DNA from: Clostridiales bacterium
GTDB taxonomy: Bacteria; Acidobacteriota; Aminicenantia; Aminicenantales; UBA8522
Length of the DNA stretch: 64,000 bases
Assembly (NCBI GenBank): GCA_029907205.1
Contig: JARYMI010000002.1
Span: 59,060 to 123,059, forward strand
Direction: 5' to 3'
The notes below the pieces were generated by a model. It had not been told where the DNA came from and made no database searches. It was given only the letters and a program-made list of their open reading frames with translations. The position numbers and the translations under genes are program-made. This document shows, piece by piece, positions 5,938 through 45,130 of the stretch (its first letter is position 1; every line of letters begins with the position of its first letter).

Positions 5938-6767
5938 AAATTGCCCTCGTCCAGCAGCACTCCACCGCAGACCGCAATGAAAACTTGGCGCGGGGCGTTG
6001 AGGCATTTCGCGAGGCTGCACGGCAGGGAGTGGATCTCGTCGCTTTTTCGGAGCTGGCGTTTCTTCGATTCCTGCCGCAGAGGCCGGCAACCCAGGAAGC
6101 GCTTGCGGTGGCCGAGCCAATCCCGGGCCCGACGACTGAGACGTTTGTTGAGCTCTGCCGAGAGCACGGGATCGTGGCTGTCCTCAACCTTTTCGAGCGA
6201 TGTTCGATCGATGGCAAAACATACGATTCCTCGCCTGTCATCGACGCCGATGGCCGGCTCGTCGGCGTCACACGCATGGCTCATATCATGGAAGGCCCCG
6301 GGTTTCACGAAAAAGGTTACTACGCGCCTTCGCCGGAAGGGCCGCGCGTCTACGAGACGGCAGCCGGCCGGGTCGGCGTGGCCATCTGCTACGACCGCCA
6401 TTTCCCCGAGTACTTGCGCGCTCTCGGCCTTTCAGGTGCCGAGATTGTCGTCGTGCCCCAGGCTGGCGCGGTGGGCGAGTGGACTGAGGGTATCTTCGAG
6501 GCTGAACTTCAAGTAGCGGCTTTCCAGAACGGCTATTTCGCGGCGCTTGTCAACCGTGTCGGAAGGGAGGAGGTCGTCTATTTTGCCGGTGAATCTTACG
6601 TCGTCGACCCCGACGGCCGGGTTATTGCCCGGGCGCCCCGAGACCGGGATTGTATCCTTTACGCTGACTGCGATTTGAGCAGGATCGCATCCTCGTTCGC
6701 CCGCAAGCATTTCCTCCCGGACCGGCGGCCCAGGTTTTACAGGTCTTTCGGGATAATCGAGGAATAG
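5934..6767 (+). CDS. Carbon-nitrogen hydrolase (nitrilase superfamily amidase)
   Basis: MKIALVQ...FSELAF (Glu), ...GVAICYDRHFPE (Cys nucleophile). ATGA overlap with the prolidase gene. Confidence 0.75.
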   Translation: MKIALVQQHSTADRNENLARGVEAFREAARQGVDLVAFSELAFLRFLPQRPATQEALAVAEPIPGPTTETFVELCREHGIVAVLNLFERCSIDGKTYDSSPVIDADGRLVGVTRMAHIMEGPGFHEKGYYAPSPEGPRVYETAAGRVGVAICYDRHFPEYLRALGLSGAEIVVVPQAGAVGEWTEGIFEAELQVAAFQNGYFAALVNRVGREEVVYFAGESYVVDPDGRVIARAPRDRDCILYADCDLSRIASSFARKHFLPDRRPRFYRSFGIIEE

Positions 6768-6797: not shown

Positions 6798-7280
6798 ATG
6801 AAAAGCTGGTTCGTCATCAACACCAAGCCCAAAAAGGAATTCCAGGTGAAAATGATTTTCCAGGAGGCTGGGTTCAACTACTACAACCCGGTTTACGAGA
6901 GCGAGGGCAAAGTAAAGCCCTTTTTCCCGGGATATGGATTCCTCTTTTTCGACTTTCCTGGCCAGTACCAGCTCGTCCGGTTCACGCGCGGGGTCAAGAG
7001 AGTCGTCGGCAACCGCGAAGGCCCCATTCCCATCCCGGAAGACATGATCCAGGAAATCAAGAGGCGCGAGGTCAACGGCCTGATCGAGCTGGCCAAATAC
7101 GGCGAGGAGCCCGAAGTAGGGGACGAGGTCGAGATTGCCGAGGGCCCATGGAAAGGCTTGCGCGGAATTTTCAAAAAGGAGCTCAGCGACAGGAACAGAG
7201 TCATGATCCTGCTCAGCTACGTTTCCTTCCAGGGCCAGCTTCTGATTGAAAAGAAGAAGCTCAAGAAAGTGGCCAAATAA
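6798..7280 (+). CDS. NusG-paralog transcription antiterminator (UpxY/LoaP-like, KOW domain)
   Basis: WFVINTKPKKEF...GYGFLFF...GDEVEIAEGPWKGLRGIF: an NGN domain plus a KOW motif. It sits immediately in front of a sugar aminotransferase gene. Confidence 0.6.
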   Translation: MKSWFVINTKPKKEFQVKMIFQEAGFNYYNPVYESEGKVKPFFPGYGFLFFDFPGQYQLVRFTRGVKRVVGNREGPIPIPEDMIQEIKRREVNGLIELAKYGEEPEVGDEVEIAEGPWKGLRGIFKKELSDRNRVMILLSYVSFQGQLLIEKKKLKKVAK

Positions 7281-9699: not shown

Positions 9700-12141
9700 T
9701 CAGTTCAGCACCTGAATCCTGACCGGACGGCTTTCGCAGGTTTCTGTCCCGCATACGAATTTCGCTTTGATTGTATACGTTCCGGGCTTAAGATTCCAGA
9801 AAAAAACAAAGGGCTGCGAAGAAGATTCGCCGGTTTTTTGCCCGTTGATGACCCATTCGACGACGCCGTCCCCGGCCAGCGCAGTGAGAAAAACCGCCGC
9901 GCGGAGCTTGATCCGCTGGTGCTCGAGCCGAAGCACGGGGTCAATCTTGAAGACATCCCCATCGCCGGGAAAAGTGATTTCAACTTGGAATGTTTGCGTT
10001 GGACTCAGGGCCGTTGAAGAAGAAAAATTGGCTGCGGTGGTGGAGCCATACCATGGCTCTCGTGCCAGAATATGACTTGTCACATCCGAAAGTGGCGCGC
10101 CGGAATGGCGAGAGCAGGCGGCGCGCGGCTCCGTTCCCGCGATGAAAATCTCCTCGACGGCGCCCGGGCAGAATTCCATCGGAAGCTCTCCTGACTCGGG
10201 GCAGACAGATTGCCTGACGATTCCCTCTGGCTCCTCAAAAGCTGCCCATCCTTCCTTCCGGTTAAGAAGAAACATGATGTCGCGGAAGAGAGGGCCACAG
10301 CCCGTTATGCCAGAGACGCTTTGCATGGGCTTTCCGTCGAAATTTCCTACCCAGACCCCGACCGTGTAGCGGGACGTGTATCCCACAGTCCAGTTGTCCC
10401 GAAAATCCTTGGATGTCCCCGTCTTCGCTGCGACAGGAAAGGGAAAAGAAAGAGGCGTCACGTATCCGAAGCTCGGGACCCGCGCATCCCTGTCGGAAAG
10501 GATACTTGTGATAATGTATGCCACCTGGTCAGAGAAAATGCGTCTGCTCCCGAGCGAGGGGCTTTGCGACTCTTTCTGTTTTTCTTTTTTCCTTTCTTTT
10601 TCTCTTTCTATTTTTTTAGATAGCGCTCCGCTCTTGTCCGTTTTCGCCACGACGGCGAGCACCGCCTTTTCCGGCCTGTACATGCCCTGCCTCGCCAGCG
10701 CCGCATACGCCCGCACAAGCTCTAAGAGCGTCACCTCGCCGTTCCCCAGTGTCAATCCCAGCCCGTAATACCCCGGGCTCTCCTCGAGGCTCTCGAACCC
10801 GAGCGCCTTGAGACGGCGGTAAAGGAGGTCTGGCCCTATCTTTTCGAGGAGCGAGACCGCTGGGATGTTGTAGGAGCAGGCGAGCGCGGCCCTCAGGCTC
10901 ATCGGACCGTGGTATTTACGGTCAAAGTTAAGCGGGATGTACGCGCCCGTATCCGTGGGAAAAGCCGATGGAGAATCTTCGACAATCGAGGTTGCGGTCA
11001 GGCCTTTCTCTATTGCCAGGGCGTAGGTGAAAGGCTTGAGCGTCGAGCCGGGCTGGCGCCTGGCCAGAGCGCCGTTCACCTGGCCGGCTCTGGCCTCGTC
11101 AAAAAAGTTTTTCGAGCCGACGAGGCTCAGCACCTCGTCTGTGGCGTTATCGAGGACGACGACAGCGCCGTTGGTGATGCCGCGGCTCGATAGCGAATCG
11201 AGGTATTTGCAGAGCATGGCCTCGATTTTTTCCTGGAGGGCGAAATCGAGCGTTGTCTGGATGAAGCTGATCTCTCGGCGCCGCTCTTGCGGAATCCGGC
11301 CGAGCACCCAGTCACAGAAATGGGGCGCCAGAAAAGCGACCTCAGCGGGAACTATCCGCGGCTCCTCGCCAAGTGCCCGCGTCATCTCCTCTTCAGTGCA
11401 AAACCCGAGCTTTGCCATCCTGTGAAGAATGGCGCGCTGGCGGCCTTTCGAAGCGTCCCGAGCTTCGTCGGAGCGGTAGGGATTAAAGAGAGACGGCGCG
11501 CGCGGCAGCCCGGCCAGAAACGCCGACTCTGCCAGGCTGAGCTCAGAACACGGCTTGCCGAAATAAAGGCGAGAGGCGGCCTCAGCGCCGTACGCCTGGT
11601 TACCGTAAAAGATGCGGTTCAGGTACTGGACCAAGATTTCTTCCTTGGAAAGCGTCCGTTCGAGCCTCAGAGCATACCAGGCCTCCCGGAATTTCGAACC
11701 CACGGTGCGCGGGCCGGGCCAGATATTCCGCGCCAGTTGCTGGCTGATAGTTGACGCGCCGGAGACAACGCGGCCGCTCCTCAGATTCTGGACAGAGGCA
11801 CGGACGACGGCCAGGACATTCAAGCCCGAGTGGAAAGGAAAACGCCTGTCTTCAGCAGCGATTGTAGCCTTGATGAGGTGCGGAGAAACATCTTCAAGTT
11901 CGACCCATCGGCACCGTCCTCCTTCATCAGAAAGAACTTCACGCAAGAGCTTGCCGTTGCGGTCACGGATTTCGAGCGATACGACCGGCGCCGGGCTGAG
12001 TCTTGAGCGAGGCACAGGGATGAACGCAGAGAGAAGAAAAAGCAAGGTAAGCACAACGGCAAAGACAAAAGCCACGAAGCCAGCGAAGAAAAAAATGCGG
12101 GGGGAGCGCAAGCAGGGGGAAAGCAGCTTCTTTATGGTCAT
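9700..12141 (-). CDS. pbpC: Penicillin-binding protein 1C (glycosyltransferase + transpeptidase + PbpC C-terminal domain)
   Basis: TM anchor; GT51 motifs ([12 protein letters not shown]...[12 protein letters not shown]...RKxxE); transpeptidase domain; C-terminal beta-sandwich. Start placed at MTIKKLL (ATG 12141), 2 nt after the A2M stop. The track ORF has an Arg-rich extension that overlaps A2M. Confidence 0.8.
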
Positions 12142-12143
12142 TT

Positions 12144-15100
12144 TCACTTCACGATATTGACGAGCGTTTCCTGGCTTCGTCCAAAGACTTCGGGAGAGTA
12201 CATCTCCTCGGCCTTCGTGCCAGGCAGGACATACGCGCCGAAATTGAGAGCCCGCGCCAGGTAACGATGCGTATGGAGACCCGGTGCGAGGGAATCGGCA
12301 AAAAGAAGAACGCGGTCGTCGTGCATTTCGATGTGGCTGAACCCGTGCCACCATGGCGAAGGCGTGCTGTCCGAGGCGATGATCTCCCCGAGCCGGCGCG
12401 CCGCTTCCTCGCTTTCGGTGATGAAGTTAGGGTTGACCGCATCAAACCCGGCCGGGAGAGGGTCGTCAACGACGACGTAGAGAGATTCCTGCGGCACAGC
12501 CACCTCGACCGTGACCACGACGAGTGAGCCGGCTTTTATCGTTTCAGTGGGCTTGCCACCGCGGTCAAGCGGCTCGATTTTCTTCACGACGGCGATTCCC
12601 TCGTCGCGAGGAACGCCCGGACGAGCCGGCGCATAAGTCAGCCGTGCGCCGTAGTACAAAATCCCTTCTCCTTCCTTACGGATTCTTAGGGGGAGTTCGC
12701 GCTGTCCGCCAGTCGTATCCTCATCACGGGTCTTGAACTCCCTGAAGCCGAAACGGGCGGTCTTGATTTCTCGGCTGGCCGAACTAAATCGTTCTTCCAG
12801 GAGAGTACGACCGGCCAAAGTGACTTTTCCTATAAAATCGGCTGGAACGCGCTCACGGGAGCTGTAAAACTCGTTCAGGCCATAGAAAACATAAAAATTC
12901 TCCTGGGTGGAGCCGAAACGTCCTGAGGATTCCCTCTGTTTGCTCACGAGCCAGCGGGCGACTGAACCGAGAAGCGGATGGTCTTGGCCGGTTTCTATGA
13001 GCGTCTGGAGGATGAGGGCTGTCGTCCGGCTGTTGGATGAGTAGATCCAGCGGCCTTCGCTTCCCTCGTCGTCCTCAAAGTGTGCGCCGCTGGGGCTGAC
13101 CTTGATTTTGTTGAGAAGATCCTGGAGCAGCGTGGCGAGCGCGGCGGGCGAGCCCTTTCCGTGGTGGAGCGCCTTGAGGAGGAGGGTCCGCGCGAAAAGC
13201 GATAGCCTGTCTTTTTCGGCGTAGAGACGTTCAGCAAAGGCGGGCTGGGGTTTCCCTAACAGGCTGAGGACATAGAGGGCATAGGCGCGGGTCGTTTTCC
13301 AGGCACGCTGGCCGAAGGGCTGGCGGCCTTGGCTCCACTCGGTCCGCAAGAAACTGATGAGGTAACCGGCAGCTCTGTCGAGGCGGTCGCGGTCAACCTC
13401 AAACCCCGCTTCCTGGGCCTGGATGAGGGTGAAGGCAGCGTAACAGGTGAGGAAGGGAGACTCGAAGGAGGAATCTGGCCAAGAACTGAACCCGCCGTTT
13501 TCTTTCTGGAAAGCAGCAACCTCGTTCAGGCCTTTGCGGACGAGTATGTCAATATCCTTTTCTTGGAGCGAAGTCAGCTTGAAATCAACGAGGACGCGCC
13601 GGGCAACAACATAAGGAAGGATGGCCGACAGGCGCTGTTCCAGGCAGGCATAGGGGTAGTCTGTGAGATAGTCAAAGCTGCCCTTGAGACTTAGCAGGGC
13701 AGACGAAGCGGCATGCACTTCAAGGCGGCTCTCCTCTGGATAAACGTCATCCGGGACCAAGACCTTCTCCTCGGCGGCCTCTTCGGTTTCGCCAGAAAGA
13801 GCGACTGTTTCTGTCGGCCGGGGAAGATAAACGGGAAGCTTGAGCTCAACGCCGTCGGTCTCGTCGGCCAGGCGGCCTCTGAAGGAGAAAGTGGCGACCC
13901 CCGGCCTATCGGCCTCCAGGCGGAAGAGGACCTCGCGGCTTTCTCCATGCTTGAGGATGAAGCGGCGCGCTTTTGTTTTATCGAGGAGGCGAATGCCAGA
14001 TGCCTCCACGCCAAGGTTGACATCGCCCTTGACTGAGGAGAAGTTGTGGATAACGACCCCTGCCTCAAACATGTCGCCAACACGGCAGAAGCGGGGGAAC
14101 GAAGGCAGGAGGAGGAGCTTCTTGGACACGCGGAAGGAAGTCTCGCTCCGGCCGAAATGAGACTCTCTGGTCTGCGCCACCGCCATGACACGGAAAGTGG
14201 TGAGGTTATCGGGAAGCGTAAAGGTGACGCTGGCTTCTCCGTTTTCATCGGTGAGCAGGGAGGGATTCCAGTATGCAGTCGATTTGAAATCTCCGCGCAG
14301 CTCGACTTCGGTCAGGCCCGGAGCTGCAGCCATTTCTTTCTCTGTGCCAACTCCGCCTCCCGGCTCTTCGCCCTTTTCGCCGTAATCGCGCTGGCCGACG
14401 ACATGAAGCCGGGTTTCTGATGTGCGGACTGAAAGCGGGCGCTCGCCGTAGAAGAACGAGAAGGGGTCGGGAGTCTCGTAGCCGATCAGGTTGAGCACAC
14501 CGAGGTCAACGACAGCGACCGAAAGGCAAGCAGGCAAGCCGGCATCCGAAGAAGAGCTTGCAGAGACCCTGAATTTCAACCTGACGGTCTCCCTTGGCTT
14601 GTATTCGGTCCTGGGGTTTTCAATACTGACCGAGAGCCTCTTCAGAGCTGGGTTTACACTGAGGTTAACATAGCCAATTTTGAAAGAAGGCTGGCCGAGG
14701 TCTTTAAGTCCAACAGCAGAAGTTTCAACGCGGCCATAGACGAGCAGGACGGAGATAAAAACATTCGGGATGTATTCTCGAAGGATGGGGATTTCAATAT
14801 GGCTGGCCGTGCCCTCGATGTCCAAAACCCTGGCTTCTAAAATCGACTCGCGCTCGATGGTAACCAGAGCTTTAGCCCGTTCGTAAGGCGATTTCACCAG
14901 AATTCTGGCGCGGTCGCCAGGCCTGTAGGATTCAGCGTCAGCCACGAGTTCTATGGCATCGTCGTCAGTGCGTTCCCAGGGAACGAAATCACGACCTGTT
15001 ACGTAGAACGAGGTCGTGGTTGTGATCGTATTTTTAAGGCTGTCCAGGGAAGAGGCGAGCAGCAAATAGAAGCCCGATTTGTCGGGAGCCAAGGAGACGG

Positions 15101-18008
15101 TTGCGGCTGACATCCCGGTCAGGACGTCGCGGCTTTCGACCTCCACATCCTCGCGCTCGGTGAGCCAGCGGAAGAGGCCGCCGACGCCCGCCTGGCGGAC
15201 CGACCGCCACTCGCGCCGGACGAGCTTGAGGTTGATTGTGCGGCCGGGAAGGAGAGTGCCATCAGGCAAGGCGGCGATAACATCGACCGAGATGGCCTCT
15301 CCTTTCTTGAGAAAGGAAGTCGATGGCTTGAGCCCGATGGTGAACTCGCCTCGGTGAACCAGAGTCTGGATGCGGTTGGAGATGGTGCGGCGACTCGGGC
15401 TCGTGACTGTGGCTTCGAGGGTGGCAAGGACCGAATCTTTTTCTTTTTCCGGGAGAAGCGGCACCTTGAGGGTGAGTTTGCCTTGATCATTGAGCCTGGT
15501 TTCAGCAGAAGCCAGGAGGCGGCTTTCGGCTGGCGAGGTCTCTTCCTCTCCCCAGTCAATCTCATTGCCGAAAATATAGCCCTCATGGCCAGGCGGAGCG
15601 AAGGAGGTTCGGTTGAGACGGAGATGCCAGGTGACGTCCTGGCCGGCCATGGCTCCCCCGAAGAGATAATTCGCTCGGATTTCGGCTCTGTAGTCGCGGC
15701 TGAAGACGAAGCTTTTCTCAGCGGCCCGGAGGTGAAGTTCAAACTCTGCCGGACGGAAGGCCTCAACACGAAATGAGCCTGAGAACAATACCGGCTTTTC
15801 GCCCGGCAGGCGCGGCCGAAGCTTGGCCGTGATCTGATAATAGCCGAGTGAGGAGTCCTCAGACGTCGTGAAATCAAGGGCAAAAGACCCGAACTTATCC
15901 AGAGGAATCGTGCTTTTAAAGATCCGTTTTTCGAAGGGATCCAGGATTTCGCAATCCAGGGAGAGCGGAGAAGAAGCAGGAGGAGGGGCTGACGGGATCT
16001 GCCACTGACCCTTGACGCTTTCCCTGATGATGCCCTTGATATGGACTTTTTCGCCAGCCCGGTAGATACCTCGTTCGGTAAAAATATATCCTTGCCAGAC
16101 GGCCGGCTCAGGGAACCAGTCGTACGATATCCTGAAGCGGTAGGGGTCGATCCCCGTGCCCCATTCGGACGAGGAGAGGGCCGTGTCGGCGCCCCGGGAG
16201 GCAAAGACCCACTGGCGCGGCTCGGCGTATTCGTCTCGGCTTGAAATGCCGAGTTTCTTCCAGCCGGGCGTTTCGGCCTTGCCAAAGGCGTCGGTTTTGC
16301 CCCGCCATTTAACTGTATTGGCGTCGTCGCGGAGCTCAACGGCTGCATCGGGCACGGGCAGACCGGTCTTAAGCTCGGTGACCCAGATGATGTTGTTATC
16401 AGCTGAGAACTTGGCGCTGATGCCGAGTTCTGTAACCTGAAGGAAGGCTTTTTTATAGCGGTCCCATTTATCTTCAGGGCAATTGGTGTCGACCTGGAGA
16501 AAAAGCAGCCCGGGAGTGTTGGGCGCGGGAAACAGCTCAGAAAGGTCAATGGGAACGGTGCGGCGCTTGTTCCGACCGAGGTTAAGGTTGAGAGTCTTTT
16601 CAACCTGGAAAAACCCGGCGGGAGCGGAAAATTTCTCATCCGGCCAAAAAACCTTGGGCTGACGGAGCAAAGGGATAACAGCGTCTTTGGCGAGGCGAGT
16701 CGCCTGGATGAAGACGCTCTCCTGATTGATAGCCTGGAGGGGATACCGAGGGCCGGGAGCAATCGTGGCTTCGATGACACCGTGGCCGGTGACCATGGAA
16801 ACAGAGGGAGGGAAGGAGCCCGTCGAGAAACGGAGAGAAACGGCCTCGCCCAGCGAGTTGCCAAACTCGTCGGCCAGGTCTGGAGAGAGACGCACCGAGT
16901 AAGATGAGTCCGGCTCGAGCGGGAGAGAAAAATAGAGCACATCGCTGCTGTATTCCCATTCGGAGTAATAATCGGGAATCTCAACAGGCGGGTCGAACGT
17001 GATTTTAGAGACGAAATCTTTGTAAAAAACCTGGTTGGTGAACTTGAATTGAACGGGTTCGCTTGGGGGAAGGTTTTCCGCGTTCTCAAGGCCTATGAAC
17101 CGAAAAGGAGCGAAGGTTTCGAAGCTAAAGGAATGATCTTTTTCCAAGCCAAGAGGGCCTTCTTTGGCAGCTAAGCCCCGTTTGAGGGTGATGAGGCAGG
17201 TTGATCCTGGCGTAAGTTTTTGTCCAGACGACAGAGTGAGGAGCAGGCCATGATCGGGCGGAAGTTCAAGCCTCTCGCTCTTGAGTTTTTCCGCCGGAGG
17301 GTGAGCAATATCGAAGGGGAGAGCTCTCGGCCGACCGGGTTCAGCGCAAGCAGTGGCGGTTGGCGCTTCTGTCCATGAAATGAAACGCGCTGCTTTGTCC
17401 CTATCAATCGGCTGGTTGAAGAGAAGTAGAACTTGGGTATCGAGTTTGACCCATCGCTGTCCATCGACAGGAAAATTCCTGACGAGGCGAGGTTCGATCG
17501 TCTTGAATGACCATATGAAATCGCGCGGAAGAGTGCTGCCGTCGAGGGCAGAAGTTCCTGCCGGCACAGTGACGTTAATTTCAGAGGCAAAAGGGAAGCG
17601 TTTGTCGGGAGCAAAAGCCAATGTCCGACTGCCGATCCACCGGTGCTTGCCGGCTGCTGGAGGGTCGAACCTGAGGAGAGAACGATCTAATGGGGCTTTT
17701 TTTTCGATGGCTTGAAGAGCGACCATTGGCCGGTCGAAAGTGACGACGACAGTCTCGGATTCGTGGGGCGCCGCCGTTCGTCCCTGGGGAGTCGCGCTGA
17801 GGACACGCAGGTCAGTGACAGCCGCGGCAGGAGGTGGCTTCAATGGATTATTTATATTATCCCGATAGGCTCGATCGATTTTATCCGTGCGGGCCGATTG
17901 TCCCGCTTTCCCTGGCTCCTCCTGTTTGCAGCGTTGAAGAGTGAGGACGAAAACGAAAGCGATGAAGAGCCAGGTCATCAGGACAGAAGTGAACTTTATT
18001 TTTCCCAT
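12144..18008 (-). CDS. Bacterial alpha-2-macroglobulin family protein (thioester-containing, 1954 aa)
   Basis: N-terminal signal ending ...LTLQRC; MG domains; thioester motif YPYACLEQ; receptor-binding-like C-terminus. GGAGGTG RBS before the ATG at 18008. Adjacent to pbpC as in the yfhM-pbpC pair. Confidence 0.85.
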   Translation of the reverse strand: MGKIKFTSVLMTWLFIAFVFVLTLQRCKQEEPGKAGQSARTDKIDRAYRDNINNPLKPPPAAAVTDLRVLSATPQGRTAAPHESETVVVTFDRPMVALQAIEKKAPLDRSLLRFDPPAAGKHRWIGSRTLAFAPDKRFPFASEINVTVPAGTSALDGSTLPRDFIWSFKTIEPRLVRNFPVDGQRWVKLDTQVLLLFNQPIDRDKAARFISWTEAPTATACAEPGRPRALPFDIAHPPAEKLKSERLELPPDHGLLLTLSSGQKLTPGSTCLITLKRGLAAKEGPLGLEKDHSFSFETFAPFRFIGLENAENLPPSEPVQFKFTNQVFYKDFVSKITFDPPVEIPDYYSEWEYSSDVLYFSLPLEPDSSYSVRLSPDLADEFGNSLGEAVSLRFSTGSFPPSVSMVTGHGVIEATIAPGPRYPLQAINQESVFIQATRLAKDAVIPLLRQPKVFWPDEKFSAPAGFFQVEKTLNLNLGRNKRRTVPIDLSELFPAPNTPGLLFLQVDTNCPEDKWDRYKKAFLQVTELGISAKFSADNNIIWVTELKTGLPVPDAAVELRDDANTVKWRGKTDAFGKAETPGWKKLGISSRDEYAEPRQWVFASRGADTALSSSEWGTGIDPYRFRISYDWFPEPAVWQGYIFTERGIYRAGEKVHIKGIIRESVKGQWQIPSAPPPASSPLSLDCEILDPFEKRIFKSTIPLDKFGSFALDFTTSEDSSLGYYQITAKLRPRLPGEKPVLFSGSFRVEAFRPAEFELHLRAAEKSFVFSRDYRAEIRANYLFGGAMAGQDVTWHLRLNRTSFAPPGHEGYIFGNEIDWGEEETSPAESRLLASAETRLNDQGKLTLKVPLLPEKEKDSVLATLEATVTSPSRRTISNRIQTLVHRGEFTIGLKPSTSFLKKGEAISVDVIAALPDGTLLPGRTINLKLVRREWRSVRQAGVGGLFRWLTEREDVEVESRDVLTGMSAATVSLAPDKSGFYLLLASSLDSLKNTITTTTSFYVTGRDFVPWERTDDDAIELVADAESYRPGDRARILVKSPYERAKALVTIERESILEARVLDIEGTASHIEIPILREYIPNVFISVLLVYGRVETSAVGLKDLGQPSFKIGYVNLSVNPALKRLSVSIENPRTEYKPRETVRLKFRVSASSSSDAGLPACLSVAVVDLGVLNLIGYETPDPFSFFYGERPLSVRTSETRLHVVGQRDYGEKGEEPGGGVGTEKEMAAAPGLTEVELRGDFKSTAYWNPSLLTDENGEASVTFTLPDNLTTFRVMAVAQTRESHFGRSETSFRVSKKLLLLPSFPRFCRVGDMFEAGVVIHNFSSVKGDVNLGVEASGIRLLDKTKARRFILKHGESREVLFRLEADRPGVATFSFRGRLADETDGVELKLPVYLPRPTETVALSGETEEAAEEKVLVPDDVYPEESRLEVHAASSALLSLKGSFDYLTDYPYACLEQRLSAILPYVVARRVLVDFKLTSLQEKDIDILVRKGLNEVAAFQKENGGFSSWPDSSFESPFLTCYAAFTLIQAQEAGFEVDRDRLDRAAGYLISFLRTEWSQGRQPFGQRAWKTTRAYALYVLSLLGKPQPAFAERLYAEKDRLSLFARTLLLKALHHGKGSPAALATLLQDLLNKIKVSPSGAHFEDDEGSEGRWIYSSNSRTTALILQTLIETGQDHPLLGSVARWLVSKQRESSGRFGSTQENFYVFYGLNEFYSSRERVPADFIGKVTLAGRTLLEERFSSASREIKTARFGFREFKTRDEDTTGGQRELPLRIRKEGEGILYYGARLTYAPARPGVPRDEGIAVVKKIEPLDRGGKPTETIKAGSLVVVTVEVAVPQESLYVVVDDPLPAGFDAVNPNFITESEEAARRLGEIIASDSTPSPWWHGFSHIEMHDDRVLLFADSLAPGLHTHRYLARALNFGAYVLPGTKAEEMYSPEVFGRSQETLVNIVK

Positions 18009-19555: not shown

Positions 19556-19719
19556 ATATTCCTCCCTGAAAATGGTTAAAGATAGGCTGAGTTTTTTTGA
19601 AAAAGCTCGAACCATCCATTGGAAGGTCTGAATCATGCCATAACTCAGGGCCCAATTCAAGGGGATTATGCGCCGGCTGATTCAACAGGAGTTGCCCCAA
19701 AAATAGGGGCTGATTTTTG

Positions 19720-20567
19720 CTAGATGGTTCTGATATCATATCCGTTTTCAAAAAGATGCGTTGCAAAGCTGTGCCTCAATGTATGCACTGACGCTTGCTT
19801 TGTAATCCCCGCTTTCCCCACAGCAACCTTGAACGCCTTCTGAAGTAAAGCGGGATGGACATGGTGCCTTCTGACAATATTGCTTCTTTGGTCAATGGAG
19901 AGCGATTTCGATGGAAAAACCCAGAACCATCCCCATTCCTTCCCGGCATTGGGATATTTTTTCTCCAGGGCATCGGGAGGCGTAGTACCCCCATATCCTT
20001 TCGCCAAATCCTGGTCATGCATCTTCTTTATTCTCTGCAGATGTAATTTAAGAGACTCCTTAATCTTGTCAGGCATTATGGTGGTTCTATCTTTCTCTCC
20101 TTTTCCCGAGCGGATGATCAGGAGATTATTGGCGAAATCGATGTCCTTGATTCTTAAGCGGATGCATTCCAGAAGGCGGAGGCCGCTTCCATAAAGCAAT
20201 TGAGCCATAAGCAGATATGGCCCCTCAAGAAAAGAAAGGAGCCGATTAACCTCTTCGCGAGTCAAGACAACGGGGAGTCTTCTCTTTTGCCGCGCCCTTT
20301 CGGTGTCAGACAGGTCGCACAGGTTTTTCTGCAGGATATTCCGGAAAAGAAACAATAAGGTCTGTTTTGAAAATATTTGAGAAACCTAACCACCCAGTAG
20401 ACATAGAATCTGGCTTTTTCCAGGGGGACAAATCGATGGCGCCTGAGAAAGTCTTCAAAATCGGAGAGGTTTTTTTGATGGTCCAATCGGCACCCCCAGG
20501 GCGGTTTGCAATTTAATATGGATAATTCTAAGATAATATTGCAATTTTGCGAGGATATTAAATGCAA
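19720..20567 (-). pseudogene. Integron integrase (intI) remnant: frameshifted and lacking the C-terminal Tyr box
   Basis: Frame A (20262..20567) reads ...FLRRHRFVPLEKARFYVYWVVRFLKYF..., the IntI N-terminal region. Frame B (19720..20355) reads ...RLPVVLTREEVNRLLSF...GKGEKDRTTIMP...PPDALEKKYPNAGKEWGWFWVFPS...HTLRHSFATHLFENGYDIRTI*. The KYP..W.WVFP patch is the IntI-specific additional domain absent from XerC/D. The stop comes before the LLGH...Y catalytic tyrosine box. Confidence 0.65.
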
Positions 20568-20574
20568 TCACGTA

Positions 20575-20639
20575 ATATACGACGGTCATCGGGGCAAATT
20601 TGTATCAAAGACAGCACGCTGTATATTAATAGTTAGGCG
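20575..20639 (+). other. Candidate attI: three TGCAAT-containing repeats followed by perfect core site GTTAGGC (20633..20639)
   Basis: ttgcaatttaata / ttgcaattttgcg / atgcaatcacg, then aatAGTTAGGCg. GTTRRRY core consensus. Position and orientation relative to intI are as expected for attI. Confidence 0.4.
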
Positions 20640-20689
20640 GTGCGTGAGGGCAAAAGACGCCTCAGTCAAAGTAGAAGTGCGAGGTAAGA

Positions 20690-21916
20690 TTGGCAATGCT
20701 AAATCTGGAGTCCGCAGATAACCTTTTTCAGACGGGAGATTTCACAAAGGCGGAGAGGCTCTATGCTGAAGCGCTGACTGGGGATCCGAGGAATTTCCAT
20801 GCTGTCGTTCGCTTAGGCTACATTGCTCTACTTGCTAATCGTCTGGACGATGCGCAGAAGTGGCTAACTGAGGCAATGGACCTCAAGCCTGAAGATGCCA
20901 CGCCAAAAACCTTACTGGCAGAGACTTTCTATCGCCGTGACGATTTCCAACAGGCAGCCCCATTACTGCGTGCCCTTGGCAGAGAGGCCATGGCAAAGAA
21001 ATTGGAAAGTTTCAATGGTGCTATGCCATACCAAATCGAGGGCAAGGCTGAAGTCACATATCTGAAGTTCGTTATGACCGACCCATTGCCTGTTATCCAA
21101 GTGCAAGTCAACCGCAGCGAGCCTGTCAACCTTTTCATTGATACAGGCGGAGCAGAGGTGATCATTGATACGGAGTTTGCCGAAGAAGTGGGCGGAGCGC
21201 AGTTTGGGACGGAGAGAGGCACTTTTGCAGGGGGGCAACAGGCAGGCTACCAACAGGGACGAATAGACTCCTTAACGCTCGGTGATTTCATTATCAAGAA
21301 TGTGCCTGTGCATATGATGGATGTCTGCCGTTTCTCTTCTGTCTTTGGAGGAAAACGAGTAGACGGCGTTATCGGGACGGTTTTGCTATATCACTTCTTG
21401 GCTACCTTGGACTATCCCCAAGGCGAACTGATTTTGCGACGCAAGACGAAGGAGACCCTGCAGCACTTTGATCAGGACGAAAAGGAGCAAAAGCATATCG
21501 TGGTTCCCTTTTGGATGGCTGGCGATCATTACATGGTAGCGTGGGGGACAATTAACAAAAGCCAACCGATGCTTTTCTTTGTGGACACGGGGTTAGCAGG
21601 CGGTGGATTCACATGCCCAGAATCCACGTTGAAGGAAGCAGGCATTCAGTTACGGGAAGGCCTTGCAGATGAGGGAATCGGCGGCGGAGGGAAAGTGAAA
21701 GCCGTTCCGTTCGTGGTGGAGGAATTGACGTTTGGGGGTGCCAGGGAGCACAACGTTCGGGGGGTGTATGCAGGCGCTTTTCCTTTTGAAAATGCCTTCG
21801 GGTTTCGCATTGGAGGCTTGATATCGCATGGATTCTTCAGGCCCTATGCTCTGACCCTCGATTTTACTAGCATGAGATATTTTCTGGAGAGAAAAGAATT
21901 CGCAGAGGCCGCCTAA
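20690..21916 (+). CDS. Cassette 1 ORF: TPR repeats + two-lobed retropepsin-like aspartyl protease
   Basis: N-terminal TPR (…AERLYAEALTGDPRNFHAVVRLGYIALLANRLDDAQKWL…), then two DTG lobes: LFIDTGGAEVIID and FFVDTGLAGGGFTC. TTG start. Confidence 0.6.
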   Translation: MAMLNLESADNLFQTGDFTKAERLYAEALTGDPRNFHAVVRLGYIALLANRLDDAQKWLTEAMDLKPEDATPKTLLAETFYRRDDFQQAAPLLRALGREAMAKKLESFNGAMPYQIEGKAEVTYLKFVMTDPLPVIQVQVNRSEPVNLFIDTGGAEVIIDTEFAEEVGGAQFGTERGTFAGGQQAGYQQGRIDSLTLGDFIIKNVPVHMMDVCRFSSVFGGKRVDGVIGTVLLYHFLATLDYPQGELILRRKTKETLQHFDQDEKEQKHIVVPFWMAGDHYMVAWGTINKSQPMLFFVDTGLAGGGFTCPESTLKEAGIQLREGLADEGIGGGGKVKAVPFVVEELTFGGAREHNVRGVYAGAFPFENAFGFRIGGLISHGFFRPYALTLDFTSMRYFLERKEFAEAA

Positions 21917-22024
21917 CAAGCTGCTGGAGCCGACCGCGCCAACGCGCGCGGCAATTCAAGCGCTCATTTCCATTCGTGCCATTCTGGGAAGAGGGCGCGG
22001 CGGCTCAGGCGCAGGCCGTTATGC
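21911..22024 (+). repeat. attC-like recombination site 1 (114 bp)
   Basis: Starts with inverse core GCCTAAC (the ORF stop TAA is inside it) and ends with GTTATGC. The ends form an imperfect inverted repeat with unpaired bases (GCCTAACAAGCTGCTGGAGCC vs revcomp GCATAACGGCCTGCGCCTGAGCC). Internal GC-rich palindrome GACCGCGCC…GGCGCGGCGGC. The next ORF's RBS follows immediately. Confidence 0.55.
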
Positions 22025-22044
22025 AGAAAAGGAGGTAAATTGCT

Positions 22045-23019
22045 ATGATAAGCATGAACATGAAATGGAGGATGTTTTGGCTGATAGGGATGTTGCTATT
22101 GGCAACCAGCATCACCTTTGCCCAGGAAGAAGATGTGGAAGGGAGTAAAGACCATCCATTGATTTCACGGTATCCGGGGTTGGTCATCAAATATTACGAT
22201 GTGAAAGAGTTTAACGAATATGTTCTTCCATTGGGTAAACTCGAAGAAAAAAAACTGACAAAGAGCCAAAGGTTGGAAGGAAAAGTGACACAAATCACAT
22301 ATTCCGCTCCAGCGGGCAGGTCAACACTTGAGATATATCGTAACTACGAGTTAGCCCTGAAGAAGGCTGGCTTTGAAACTTTATTTACTGTGACAAGTAA
22401 GGAATTAGGAGAATGGGGATGGGATCCATTTGCAAATGCATTTGCTGCTGCTACTTCTCCTCGATCTACAGAGTACTTAGGTGCCTTCTTAGGTGGTGAA
22501 GGACGATATCTTGCTGCAAAATTGACTCGTCCAGAAGGAGATATTTATGTAGCTCTTTGTATGGCGATAGGGTGGTACTCCAATGCAATGGTCCAACTTG
22601 ATGTAATTGAACTCAAACCAATGGAGACAGGATTGGTAACAGTGAATGCAGAGGCATTGGCACAAGATATTACAAGAACCGGACATGTGGCTATCTATGG
22701 CATCTACTTCGACGCAGGTAAGACAGATGTAAAGCCTGAATCTGAGCCGACCTTAAAAGAGATTGCCAAGCTCCTCCAACAGAACCTCGAACTTAAACTG
22801 TATGTTGTAGGTCATACTGATAATATTGGCACCTTGACTGGCAATATGGAACTCTCAAAACTCAGAGCTGAGGCAGTGGTGAAGACGCTTATTTCCAAGC
22901 ACGGTATAGACTCAAAAAGACTCCATCCTGTTGGGGTGGGACCTTTGGCTCCGGTCATTTCTAACAAAACCGACGAAGGTCGGGCAAAGAATCGCCGCGT
23001 AGAGTTAGTGGAACAGTAA
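22045..23019 (+). CDS. Cassette 2 ORF: secreted protein with C-terminal OmpA-family peptidoglycan-binding domain
   Basis: Signal peptide MKWRMFWLIGMLLLATSITFAQE. C-terminus LYVVGHTDNIGTLTGNMELSKLRAEAV…NRRVELV is OmpA/MotB-like. AAGGAGG RBS. Visibly AT-richer codon usage than neighbours. Confidence 0.7.
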   Translation: MISMNMKWRMFWLIGMLLLATSITFAQEEDVEGSKDHPLISRYPGLVIKYYDVKEFNEYVLPLGKLEEKKLTKSQRLEGKVTQITYSAPAGRSTLEIYRNYELALKKAGFETLFTVTSKELGEWGWDPFANAFAAATSPRSTEYLGAFLGGEGRYLAAKLTRPEGDIYVALCMAIGWYSNAMVQLDVIELKPMETGLVTVNAEALAQDITRTGHVAIYGIYFDAGKTDVKPESEPTLKEIAKLLQQNLELKLYVVGHTDNIGTLTGNMELSKLRAEAVVKTLISKHGIDSKRLHPVGVGPLAPVISNKTDEGRAKNRRVELVEQ

Positions 23020-23049
23020 TGTTGAAAAGAAGGGTTTTGATTTTTGCTC

Positions 23050-23109
23050 TGCCTAACCAGTCGCTGAAGCTGACGGCGTAAACGCCGCAGCTCAGCTCTA
23101 TCGTTCAGG
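23050..23109 (+). repeat. attC-like recombination site 2 (60 bp)
   Basis: GCCTAAC CAGTCG CTGAAGC TGACGGCG TAAA CGCCGCAGCTCAGC TCTATC GTTCAGGC. This is the R''-spacer-L''-stem-L'-spacer-R' layout and length of short attC sites, with extrahelical bases. It starts 30 nt after the ORF stop. Confidence 0.6.
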
Positions 23110-23216
23110 CGAATTATTCGACGGGATTACCTCTTAGAAAATTTTGGGGTAACTCCTGGCTGATTCAAGCCTTGCGTTGGCCCGAGGTCTCATACTAAAA
23201 TGCTTATAGTCTGAAC

Positions 23217-44326: not shown

Positions 44327-45130
44327 TTAATGTCCTCCCGATCCTTTGCGTTCACGATAGAAGCGGAGAAAATCCTTGAGAAGGGGGTCTCGGCCGAGGA
44401 GAGCTGAGGCGGCAGCCAACGCCGCCCTGAGTTCCTTATCCAGAGGATCGCATATGGCTGCGTCCAACCCCGTTTTCATGGCCAGGACCAGCAGAGTTCT
44501 GTTCAAGAGGCCGCGTTCAGGCAAGCCGAACGAGACATTGCTCAGCCCGGCCACTGTCTTTATACCAGGAAGCGTTTTTTTGATTGTTTTCAAGGATTCA
44601 AGAAAAAGCGATCCTGCCTTCGAATCCACGCCCAACGGCCGGACAAGCGGATCAATAAAGATGTCTTGTTCGCTAATCCCATGCCGGCTCAGCAGCTCCA
44701 CCATCCGTTGGGCTACAGCCAACGCCTGACGGGCATCAACCGGCAATCCCGTATCATCCAGGCAAAGGACAATGACCTGGGGCCTGAAATTCCGGATGAG
44801 TGGCAGGAGACTCTCGACCTTCGCTTTTTCGCCGGTCAGCGAGTTGAGCAGTGGCCGCCCTTTATAGAGCTCCATCGCGGCCTCCATGGCTCGCGCGTCG
44901 GGCGTGTCAAGAGCAAGGGGAACGCTAATATTTTTCTGGAGGAGCGGCACAGCCCAGCGCAAGGCTTCTAGTTCTCTATCCATCAAGGCAGAAGCGTTGA
45001 GGTCAATGTAGTCAGCTCCGGCTTGTTCTTGTAGCCTGGCCTCTTCGACAAAATAGGTCTCGTCTCTTCTGACGAGCGCATCGTGGACTGTTCGACGGCT
45101 CGAGTTCAGGCGCTCACCGATGATAATCAT
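44327..45130 (-). CDS. Pterin-binding (methyltetrahydrofolate-binding) domain protein, MetH domain-2-like / corrinoid methyltransferase-like
   Basis: MIIIGERLNSSRR…DYIDLNAS…GLSNVSFGLP…LNRTLLVLAMKTGLDAAICDP: the TIM-barrel pterin-binding signatures of MetH/AcsE/MtrH. Confidence 0.7.
   Translation of the reverse strand: MIIIGERLNSSRRTVHDALVRRDETYFVEEARLQEQAGADYIDLNASALMDRELEALRWAVPLLQKNISVPLALDTPDARAMEAAMELYKGRPLLNSLTGEKAKVESLLPLIRNFRPQVIVLCLDDTGLPVDARQALAVAQRMVELLSRHGISEQDIFIDPLVRPLGVDSKAGSLFLESLKTIKKTLPGIKTVAGLSNVSFGLPERGLLNRTLLVLAMKTGLDAAICDPLDKELRAALAAASALLGRDPLLKDFLRFYRERKGSGGH

Follow-up and report, generated by a model that had tools for sequence, protein, structure and literature searches.

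What kind of protein is encoded by the first gene cassette of a small, decayed integron, and is it likely to be of any use there? The question is raised by a stretch of 64,000 nucleotides (the window) of contig JARYMI010000002.1 (positions 59,060 to 123,059, forward strand; GenBank assembly GCA_029907205.1), deposited as a Clostridiales bacterium and placed by GTDB in the Aminicenantales of the Acidobacteriota. An earlier description made from the letters alone (the sequence-only reading) had proposed that an open reading frame (ORF) starting at 20690 of this window codes for a tetratricopeptide repeat (TPR) domain fused to a two-lobed aspartyl protease. The reading that we favor, with moderate confidence, is that the product is a single-chain, pseudo-dimeric aspartic endopeptidase of clan AA (retropepsin/pepsin superfamily) which, judging from its sequence, is probably catalytically active. 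This reading builds on the architecture of the protein, the conservation of its catalytic residues, its predicted fold and lobe arrangement, its cassette context and the purifying selection acting on it.

The ORF list contains, exactly as earlier given, a + strand frame from a TTG at 20690 to 21916 (408 amino acids). The claim that the gene starts at this TTG inside the first cassette stood as far as the location is concerned; the TTG itself is a possible start, and an ATG at 20696, two codons further on, is an equal or better candidate (406 amino acids). The start called in an 84%-identical homolog (P0001) falls at the position equivalent to this ATG, and a GAGG at 20681-20684, 5 nt before the TTG and 11 nt before the ATG, could serve both. 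Residues are numbered throughout from the ATG at 20696. No record identical to the protein was returned by an exact-sequence look-up. Since the ORF, both DTG motifs and the Pfam matches to Asp_protease_2 and TPR models are all in place, we consider on these grounds that the gene is real and its domain reading correct. Its features are the following:

20696..21916, + strand: coding sequence of the TPR plus tandem retropepsin-like aspartic protease (stop TAA at 21914-21916; Pfam matches, full-length homologs of 58-85% identity, upstream in-frame stop)
20699..21007, + strand: TPR domain, residues 2-104 (Pfam TPR_19/TPR_16/TPR_2; seven helices in the structural model; matches to consensus TPR proteins)
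21032..21439, + strand: protease lobe 1, residues 113-248 (best Asp_protease_2 stretch 136-230; invariant D, T and G; strand pattern of the model)
21449..21484, + strand: inter-lobe linker helix, residues 252-263 (secondary structure of the model; variable in the alignment consensus)
21497..21892, + strand: protease lobe 2, residues 268-399 (second Asp_protease_2 stretch; invariant D and G; profile alignment to lobe 1)

Both types of domain were recovered above the curated cutoffs in the hidden Markov model (HMM) comparison with Pfam. Asp_protease_2 (PF13650) matches the protein twice (E 2.7e-21, 76.5 bits, cutoff 24.3) and gag-asp_proteas also matches it (52.7 bits, cutoff 28.2), while the N terminus is covered by TPR_19 at residues 12-77 (E 3.2e-11, 43.8 bits, cutoff 25) and by TPR_16 and TPR_2, likewise above their cutoffs, the TPR matches together spanning residues 7-77. 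Consensus TPR protein structures match the same domain. Only sub-threshold, domain-level matches were found in NCBIfam (e.g., clan_AA_DTGA, 29.8 bits, cutoff 58). The two catalytic motifs are LFIDTGGAEVII, in which the DTG corresponds to D149-T150-G151 (nt 21140-21148), and FFVDTGLAGGGFTC, in which it corresponds to D297-T298-G299 (nt 21584-21592). A Gly-rich hairpin is present in each lobe, with FAGG at residues 177-180 of lobe 1 (a putative flap) and GGGG at residues 329-332 of lobe 2 (nt 21680-21691), and so is a hydrophobic-hydrophobic-Gly motif (V225-I226-G227 and I372-G373-G374, respectively). Residues 124-242 of lobe 1 also gave a weak match (E 2.9e-6) to the PADLOC candidate defence component PDC-M08B, a single-domain retropepsin-like protein, which probably reflects domain-level homology only. 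A defence or phage origin of the protease was considered and found no support, with just this weak domain-level match in PADLOC and no meaningful match in a PHROG search.

The two lobes, of ca. 135 residues each, are recognizably related to each other. A profile-profile comparison of lobe 1 with lobe 2 (hhalign) gave a probability of 97.9% and an E-value of 2.5e-12 over 136 columns, and brought into register the two DTG motifs, the two Gly-rich hairpins (FAGG and GGGG), and IIGT with IGGLISH; the lobes have diverged to 25% identity. In the light of this alignment, they appear clearly as the product of an internal duplication of a retropepsin-type domain.

A set of 89 full-length homologs (58-85% identical) was aligned, and an AlphaFold2 (AF2) model of the window protease was built; the model has a mean pLDDT (predicted local distance difference test) of 94.2 and a pTM (predicted template modeling score) of 0.91. 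The N-terminal part of the model consists of seven helices (residues 2-12, 16-29, 34-46, 50-63, 68-80, 84-93, and 97-104), which can be read as three TPR pairs followed by a capping helix. The rest is predicted to be a beta-barrel fold with two units around a pseudo-twofold axis. Structure matches of the model included these (score; aligned residues):

9IY9, "exported protein / putative endopeptidase" of Bacteroides fragilis: 29.1; 353
pepsin-family enzymes: 14-16; ~230
mycobacterial PE-PGRS aspartic protease domain (4EHC): 15.0; 219
chemically linked "covalent dimer" of HIV-1 protease (3KA2): 11.5; 178 of 192
Rickettsia APRc (5C9B), one lobe: 10.5; 115

Foldseek, with the same model, gave E 1e-18 and a TM (template modeling) score of 0.70 for 9IY9, and E-values of ~1e-10 for pepsins. 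The whole window chain can be superposed at the same time on the two subunits of a dimeric retroviral protease, and likewise on the two lobes of pepsin, from which it follows that its lobes are predicted to form a pseudo-dimer with a cleft between them. Pfam, the AF2 model, Foldseek and hhalign thus agree with the sequence-only reading, in which two DTG lobes in a single pepsin-like chain were preceded by a TPR domain, and the model provides the single inter-lobe cleft whose prediction had been put forward there as a check.

Conservation points in the same direction. D149, T150, G151, D297, and G299 are invariant in the alignment of 89 full-length sequences and in a second alignment restricted to the protease part (76 sequences, taken from species-level genomes, with 46-86% identity to the window protein). 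T298 is invariant in the first and Thr or Ser in the second. H278 and both hydrophobic-hydrophobic-Gly motifs are conserved as well, and in the second alignment neither H278 nor the Gly residues of these motifs vary. Of 80 genome loci, 79 keep both D[TS]G motifs. The window copy differs from the consensus at three of the 126 strongly conserved columns of the 89-sequence alignment, the median for the other members being five. Compared with the nearest intact homolog (L001; dS 0.40), the ratio of non-synonymous to synonymous substitution rates (dN/dS) is 0.21, similar to that of pairs of signal-peptide-bearing members (0.15). Invariant catalytic residues, few deviations and a low dN/dS form together the pattern expected of an active enzyme that is kept by purifying selection, and argue against a pseudo-protease or a decayed relic. 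In five of the 80 species-level genome copies (L005, L021, L039, L055, and L060) there is an in-frame stop in the protease region, and these could be pseudogenes, assembly errors or cases of recoding.

An enzyme of this kind would work with its two retropepsin-type beta-barrel lobes packed like the subunits of a retroviral protease dimer, and with Asp149 (lobe 1) and Asp297 (lobe 2) forming one catalytic dyad in the inter-lobe cleft. The FAGG and GGGG hairpins, one per lobe, probably close as flaps over an extended peptide substrate. The three-repeat TPR domain seems to have a fixed orientation on the protease body, given the high pTM and the co-alignment of this domain with 9IY9, and would most likely recruit or position the substrate; the TPR targeting named in the sequence-only reading is in this sense a proposal. 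A BLASTP clustering of the ORFs around the gene in 82 loci revealed no family-wide partner, just synteny among close Acidobacteriota, and in the absence of conserved partners the protease is probably a self-sufficient enzyme encoded by a stand-alone gene. In most bacteria it would be exported, the signal-less forms (those of archaea and Chloroflexi and the window copy) being probably cytoplasmic. For the latter, a role in processing or quality control appears somewhat more likely than one in bulk nutrition. Finally, it would be as the leading cassette of a small integron that the gene came to this Aminicenantes-like chromosome, and the integron has since been left without a functional integrase.

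A way to place this protein among known proteases is to compare it with those of established structure. In the profile search against the PDB the full-length profile was swamped by TPR proteins and a protease-only profile was therefore used. At the sequence level the catalytic DTG of 9IY9, Ddi1 and PE-PGRS was aligned with that of lobe 1. The closest structure, 9IY9 of B. fragilis (a crystal structure released on 2025-08-06), is only 13-14% identical and is labeled as exported, whereas the window protein lacks a signal. The best sequence-level match of lobe 1 among solved retropepsins was Ddi1/DDI2 (PDB 2I1A, 4Z2Z; profile E 2e-4), cytoplasmic retropepsin-type proteases with extra domains that recruit substrates, which make the nearest working analogy to a TPR-protease that lacks a signal. 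Ddi1 is, however, a eukaryotic single-domain homodimer and uses UBL/UBA targeting instead of TPR. The matches to PE-PGRS/PecA models remained below the cutoffs (PF20729, 16.9 bits against 33; NF038019, 18.9 against 150). Characterized bacterial retropepsin-like proteases are APRc of Rickettsia (PMC4140852; PDB 5C9B), RloA of Pseudomonas aeruginosa (PMC12239564) and RimB (PMC11957791). All three are described as single-domain proteins with obligate homodimerization (PMC12239564), while in the window protein the two halves are fused in one chain behind a TPR domain. The genes of this family are found in no rim/rlo-type operon and have no conserved neighbor. The TPR domain of BepA, a periplasmic M48 metalloprotease, positions the enzyme on its clients. 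The likeness to BepA, a stand-alone protease of the envelope fused to a TPR domain, would be one of design only (the TPR domain weakly matches NF052400, E 0.036). BepA differs in catalytic class and in fold, has its domains in the opposite order and shows no homology in the protease part.

The sequence-only reading had called this architecture uncommon, a view that finds no support in the databases. One word-indexed search returned more than 1,763 homologs, and an exhaustive HMMER scan of 1.84 billion cluster representatives (50% identity clusters) gave 6,040 matches at E<=1e-3, of which 428 reached E<=1e-30, so that the double Asp_protease_2 match is far beyond chance. Nearly all of the 428 strong matches have the full TPR plus two-lobe architecture in ~400-440 amino acids. 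At least 163 loci were confirmed by a pattern-based scan with one genome per GTDB species, the identity to the window protein among the species-level genome loci being 44-73%. The carriers belong to many bacterial groups (Aminicenantes, Acidobacteriota, Planctomycetota, Ignavibacteria, Zixibacteria, Chloroflexi, Gemmatimonadetes, Alphaproteobacteria, and a Synechococcus) and to archaea (Bathyarchaeia, Nitrososphaerota, Hadarchaeum, Heimdallarchaeota, and Promethearchaeota). Members are already annotated by NCBI and JGI as "aspartyl protease family protein", "predicted aspartyl protease" or "TPR repeat protein", and standard pipelines would already give the first of these names to the window gene. 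The window gene is, then, an additional member of a catalogued, structurally sampled (9IY9) and unstudied family. This family is widespread among Asgard archaea and among lineages of sediment and soil that only metagenomes have revealed. What is unusual in the window copy is its setting in a cassette of a decayed integron and the lack of the export signal found in most of its bacterial relatives.

The integron itself can be followed along the window by these features:

19679..23161, no strand: lineage-specific 3.48 kb insertion (intI remnant and two cassettes), between pepD (M20 dipeptidase) and galK
19720..20355, - strand: integron integrase remnant, pseudogene (NCBIfam TIGR02249, 292 bits, cutoff 265; model positions 73-282 of 315)
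20632..20638, + strand: attI-like core GTTAGGC (fits GTTRRRY), start of cassette 1, with the intI remnant on one side and the first cassette gene on the other
21911..22024, + strand: attC-like site of cassette 1 (R'' GCCTAAC at 21911-21917, overlapping the stop; R' GTTATGC at 22018-22024, with one mismatch to GTTRRRY)
22045..23019, + strand: cassette 2 gene, OmpA-family / DUF4892 protein (Pfam OmpA E 6.8e-21, DUF4892; N-terminal signal-like segment)
23051..23110, + strand: attC-like site of cassette 2, ~60 nt (R'' GCCTAAC at 23051-23057; R'-like box GTTCAGGC at 23103-23110)

The integrase remnant does not encode the N-terminal ~65-72 residues nor the C-terminal ~33, and no continuation of the C terminus (the region of the catalytic tyrosine) was found in any frame. 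Truncated at both ends, it indicates that the integron is dead and no longer able to move its own cassettes. A 101-amino-acid ORF at 20262-20567 (- strand) was considered as a frameshifted N terminus of IntI and rejected, since the conceptual fusion did not lengthen the HMM match. The protease gene is transcribed away from the remnant, on the opposite strand, and starts 58-64 nt downstream of the attI-like core. In the whole 64 kb there are just three copies of the heptamer GCCTAAC/GTTAGGC, each at a predicted cassette boundary. The arms of the first attC-like site pair in a single-strand fold whose energy is not better than that of shuffled sequences (z -0.65), and this site is the only candidate between 19001 and 25000 with no more than one core mismatch and paired ends. 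The bottom strand of the second gives a bulged hairpin (-18 kcal/mol, z -3.64) that none of 200 shuffles equaled. Both sites escape the strict core pattern, by one mismatch in R' in the first and by a 1-nt insertion in R' in the second. Along these lines, a strict RYYYAAC...GTTRRRY search of the whole window retrieved only an unrelated palindrome, 84 nt at 44630-44713 bounded by GCCCAAC and GTTGGGC; it lies inside an ORF at 44327-45130 (- strand), away from any integron context, and is probably due to chance.

The comparison with other genomes delimits the block precisely. Six relatives (L084-L089), with flanks 82-85% identical at the nucleotide level and GalK proteins 85-87% identical to that of the window, align up to 19674/19678 and again from 23162/23163, with only ~220-335 bp between pepD and galK. 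Those GalK relatives that bear an organism name are Aminicenantes. Since their alignment stops and resumes at its edges, 19679-23161 is to be considered an insertion. A metagenomic contig (L119, Ga0129301_1013004, positions 1-865) is 95% identical to window positions 21155-22020 and continues with unrelated DNA from 22021, the homology ending right after the GTT of the R' box, which is the integron crossover point. It covers the 3' two-thirds of the cassette, attC included, in a different downstream context. The absence of the block from the relatives of the host, together with the end of the L119 homology at the crossover point, points to mobility, and in this way integron cassettes of uncultured Aminicenantes-like bacteria would move such proteases between genomes. 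In the attC of L119 the 5' arm has a T to G change and the 3' arm a G to C change, by which pairing would be preserved. Taken together, the intI remnant, the attI-like core, the attC-like sites and the boundary seen in L119 confirm, as far as sequence can tell, that the cassette context is real and that the protease gene is the first cassette of the integron, as originally proposed. Recurrence in other integron cassettes, which the sequence-only reading had suggested looking for, was not found: a tblastn search with the window IntI detected no integron integrase within 4-5 kb of the homologs in 122 loci (82 from genomes or assemblies and 40 from metagenomes), and L119 is the sole sharer of the cassette. 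The nearest intact homolog (L001, 84% amino acid identity) has a GTTAGAC 12 nt before the start (5980-6000) and a GCCTAAC 28 nt after the stop (7234-7240), boxes that hint at a former cassette. It is not called one because no attC-like hairpin passed the scan; no integrase was found on its contig either.

The lack of a signal peptide, as the sequence-only reading had noticed, is well established for the window copy. There is an in-frame stop five codons upstream of the ATG, and the cassette boundary is only ~60 nt from the start, so that the protease cannot carry such a peptide. For the family, each genome locus was extended to the preceding stop and its hydrophobicity scored, a heuristic that is not equivalent to SignalP. 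A basic and then hydrophobic N-terminal segment, with some lipobox-like motifs, is present in ~60 of the 65 assessable bacterial copies (the exceptions are four Chloroflexi and one other) and absent in 12 of the 13 archaeal ones. One of the signal-less copies, from an Anaerolineaceae (L008), resembles a clean deletion of the hydrophobic core (junction MSAFKVV-QSSQ). The sole archaeal metagenome-assembled genome with a signal-bearing copy (Hadarchaeum, L005) is also one of those with an in-frame stop. Signal presence follows lineage, nearly all diderm bacteria having it (loci L004-L083). In a rough neighbor-joining tree the window copy pairs with L001, which shares its signal-less state, within a clade in which signal-bearing and signal-less copies are mixed, and this interleaving indicates several gains or losses of the signal peptide. 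Given the absence of the peptide, the window enzyme is probably cytoplasmic. The location claimed earlier is thus a fair inference for the window copy and its minority clade, but not for the bacterial family, in which most copies bear a signal.

An alternative that we consider unlikely, and yet the most serious of those weighed here, is that the cassette copy is a silent or mislocalized passenger, an exported protease deprived of its signal in a dead integron and still intact because it arrived too recently to have decayed. The truncation of the integrase at both ends fits this explanation, as do the signal peptides of most bacterial homologs and the state of the 95%-identical copy in L119, whose reading frame is shifted close to residue 180 and interrupted by a TAG at residue 260, within the linker between the lobes. 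The dN/dS between the window copy and L119, computed in register, is also higher (0.32). Nevertheless, most of the non-synonymous differences of this pair at conserved sites fall on the L119 side, and together with the frameshift and the TAG this indicates that the L119 copy is decaying and that the window copy is intact. The signal-less state is common to L001, from which the window copy is separated by a dS of 0.40 at a dN/dS of 0.21. All family-invariant residues are kept, with fewer deviations than in the median member, and the stable signal-less clades of archaea and Chloroflexi keep their active sites. We therefore maintain the active cytoplasmic endopeptidase as the more probable interpretation.

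Several observations weigh against that interpretation, nonetheless. L119 shows that the protease cassette can decay. No sigma-70-type promoter above chance was found upstream of the cassette in a promoter scan, which also suits a silent passenger, and with the integron dead the expression of the cassette protease is in doubt. In a host that is probably diderm, a copy without a signal, from a family that is mostly exported, may be mislocalized and not adapted. The distance between Asp149 and Asp297 and the placement of the TPR domain with respect to the cleft come from whole-chain superpositions of a predicted model only. The profile of lobe 2 retrieved no solved structure by sequence, the second lobe of 9IY9 included. 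Lastly, in the searchable literature no functional description of the TPR plus tandem retropepsin family was found, again including 9IY9, and in this sense it is indeed functionally uncharacterized, as had been stated.

A broader evolutionary scenario can be put forward, tentatively and as something that we ourselves find improbable. In this scenario the family would have repeated, independently and not very long ago in comparison, the duplication and fusion by which a retropepsin-like ancestor gave rise to pepsins, and its lobes would still be recognizably homologous. It would have spread horizontally among Bacteria and Archaea (including Heimdall- and Promethearchaeota), switching repeatedly between exported and cytoplasmic forms as the signal peptide was gained or lost. 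The cytoplasmic forms, the window copy among them, would be proteases for intracellular processing that are guided by their TPR domain, corresponding in prokaryotes to the Ddi1-type enzymes, and not nutritional or envelope enzymes. A bolder version would have the Asgard members related to the ancestor of the eukaryotic A1 pepsins. Pepsins are the textbook example of a fused and diverged dimer. Since its fused halves are still recognizably homologous, the present family would offer a natural intermediate for the origin of bilobal aspartic proteases. The fused pair, the TPR fusion, the spread over two domains of life and the switching of the signal peptide are the features that deserve experiments, and the built-in TPR domain and the natural pairs of exported and non-exported members lead to testable predictions on substrate recruitment and location. 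To a protease specialist all this will probably be interesting rather than startling.

That the protein could be a non-catalytic, pepsin-fold binding protein is very improbable. The plant xylanase inhibitor TAXI and basic 7S globulin do appear among the fold matches, and by analogy with them the cleft would serve for binding. Against this, both Asp residues, the Gly of the DTG and the hydrophobic-hydrophobic-Gly motifs are invariant in 76-89 members from two domains of life.

Closeness to the true pepsins can be judged on similar terms. Like the pepsins of family A1, the window protein is bilobal and has one catalytic Asp per lobe in a single chain. In comparison with them, the bacterial pepsin homologs included (PMC2761423), its lobes are smaller, of retropepsin size, and a TPR domain takes the place of the propeptide. 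The similarity between the lobes of pepsin is confined to the active-site and hydrophobic-hydrophobic-Gly motifs (PMC2761423). Membership in family A1, in the manner of the bacterial pepsin homologs of Rawlings and Bateman (2009), has next to no credibility, since no A1 model (Asp PF00026, TAXi) is among the 17 Pfam families matched at E<=0.1 and both lobes match Asp_protease_2 and gag-asp_proteas instead, the lobes are mutually recognizable over 136 columns, far more so than those of pepsin, and each has its own Gly-rich hairpin. The visible duplication and the lack of an A1 match make the window protein a fused retropepsin pair and not a member of the pepsin family.

The surroundings of the integron include one more system with a connection to proteolysis. 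At 9700-18008 (- strand) the window encodes a bacterial alpha-2-macroglobulin of 1,954 amino acids (MG, bait-region, TED, and MG10 domains), beside a PBP1C-type protein, a bifunctional penicillin-binding protein of 884 amino acids. These two form a periplasmic protease-inhibitor and cell-wall repair pair, separated from the integron by pepD and found also in one of the relatives that lack the insertion (L084).

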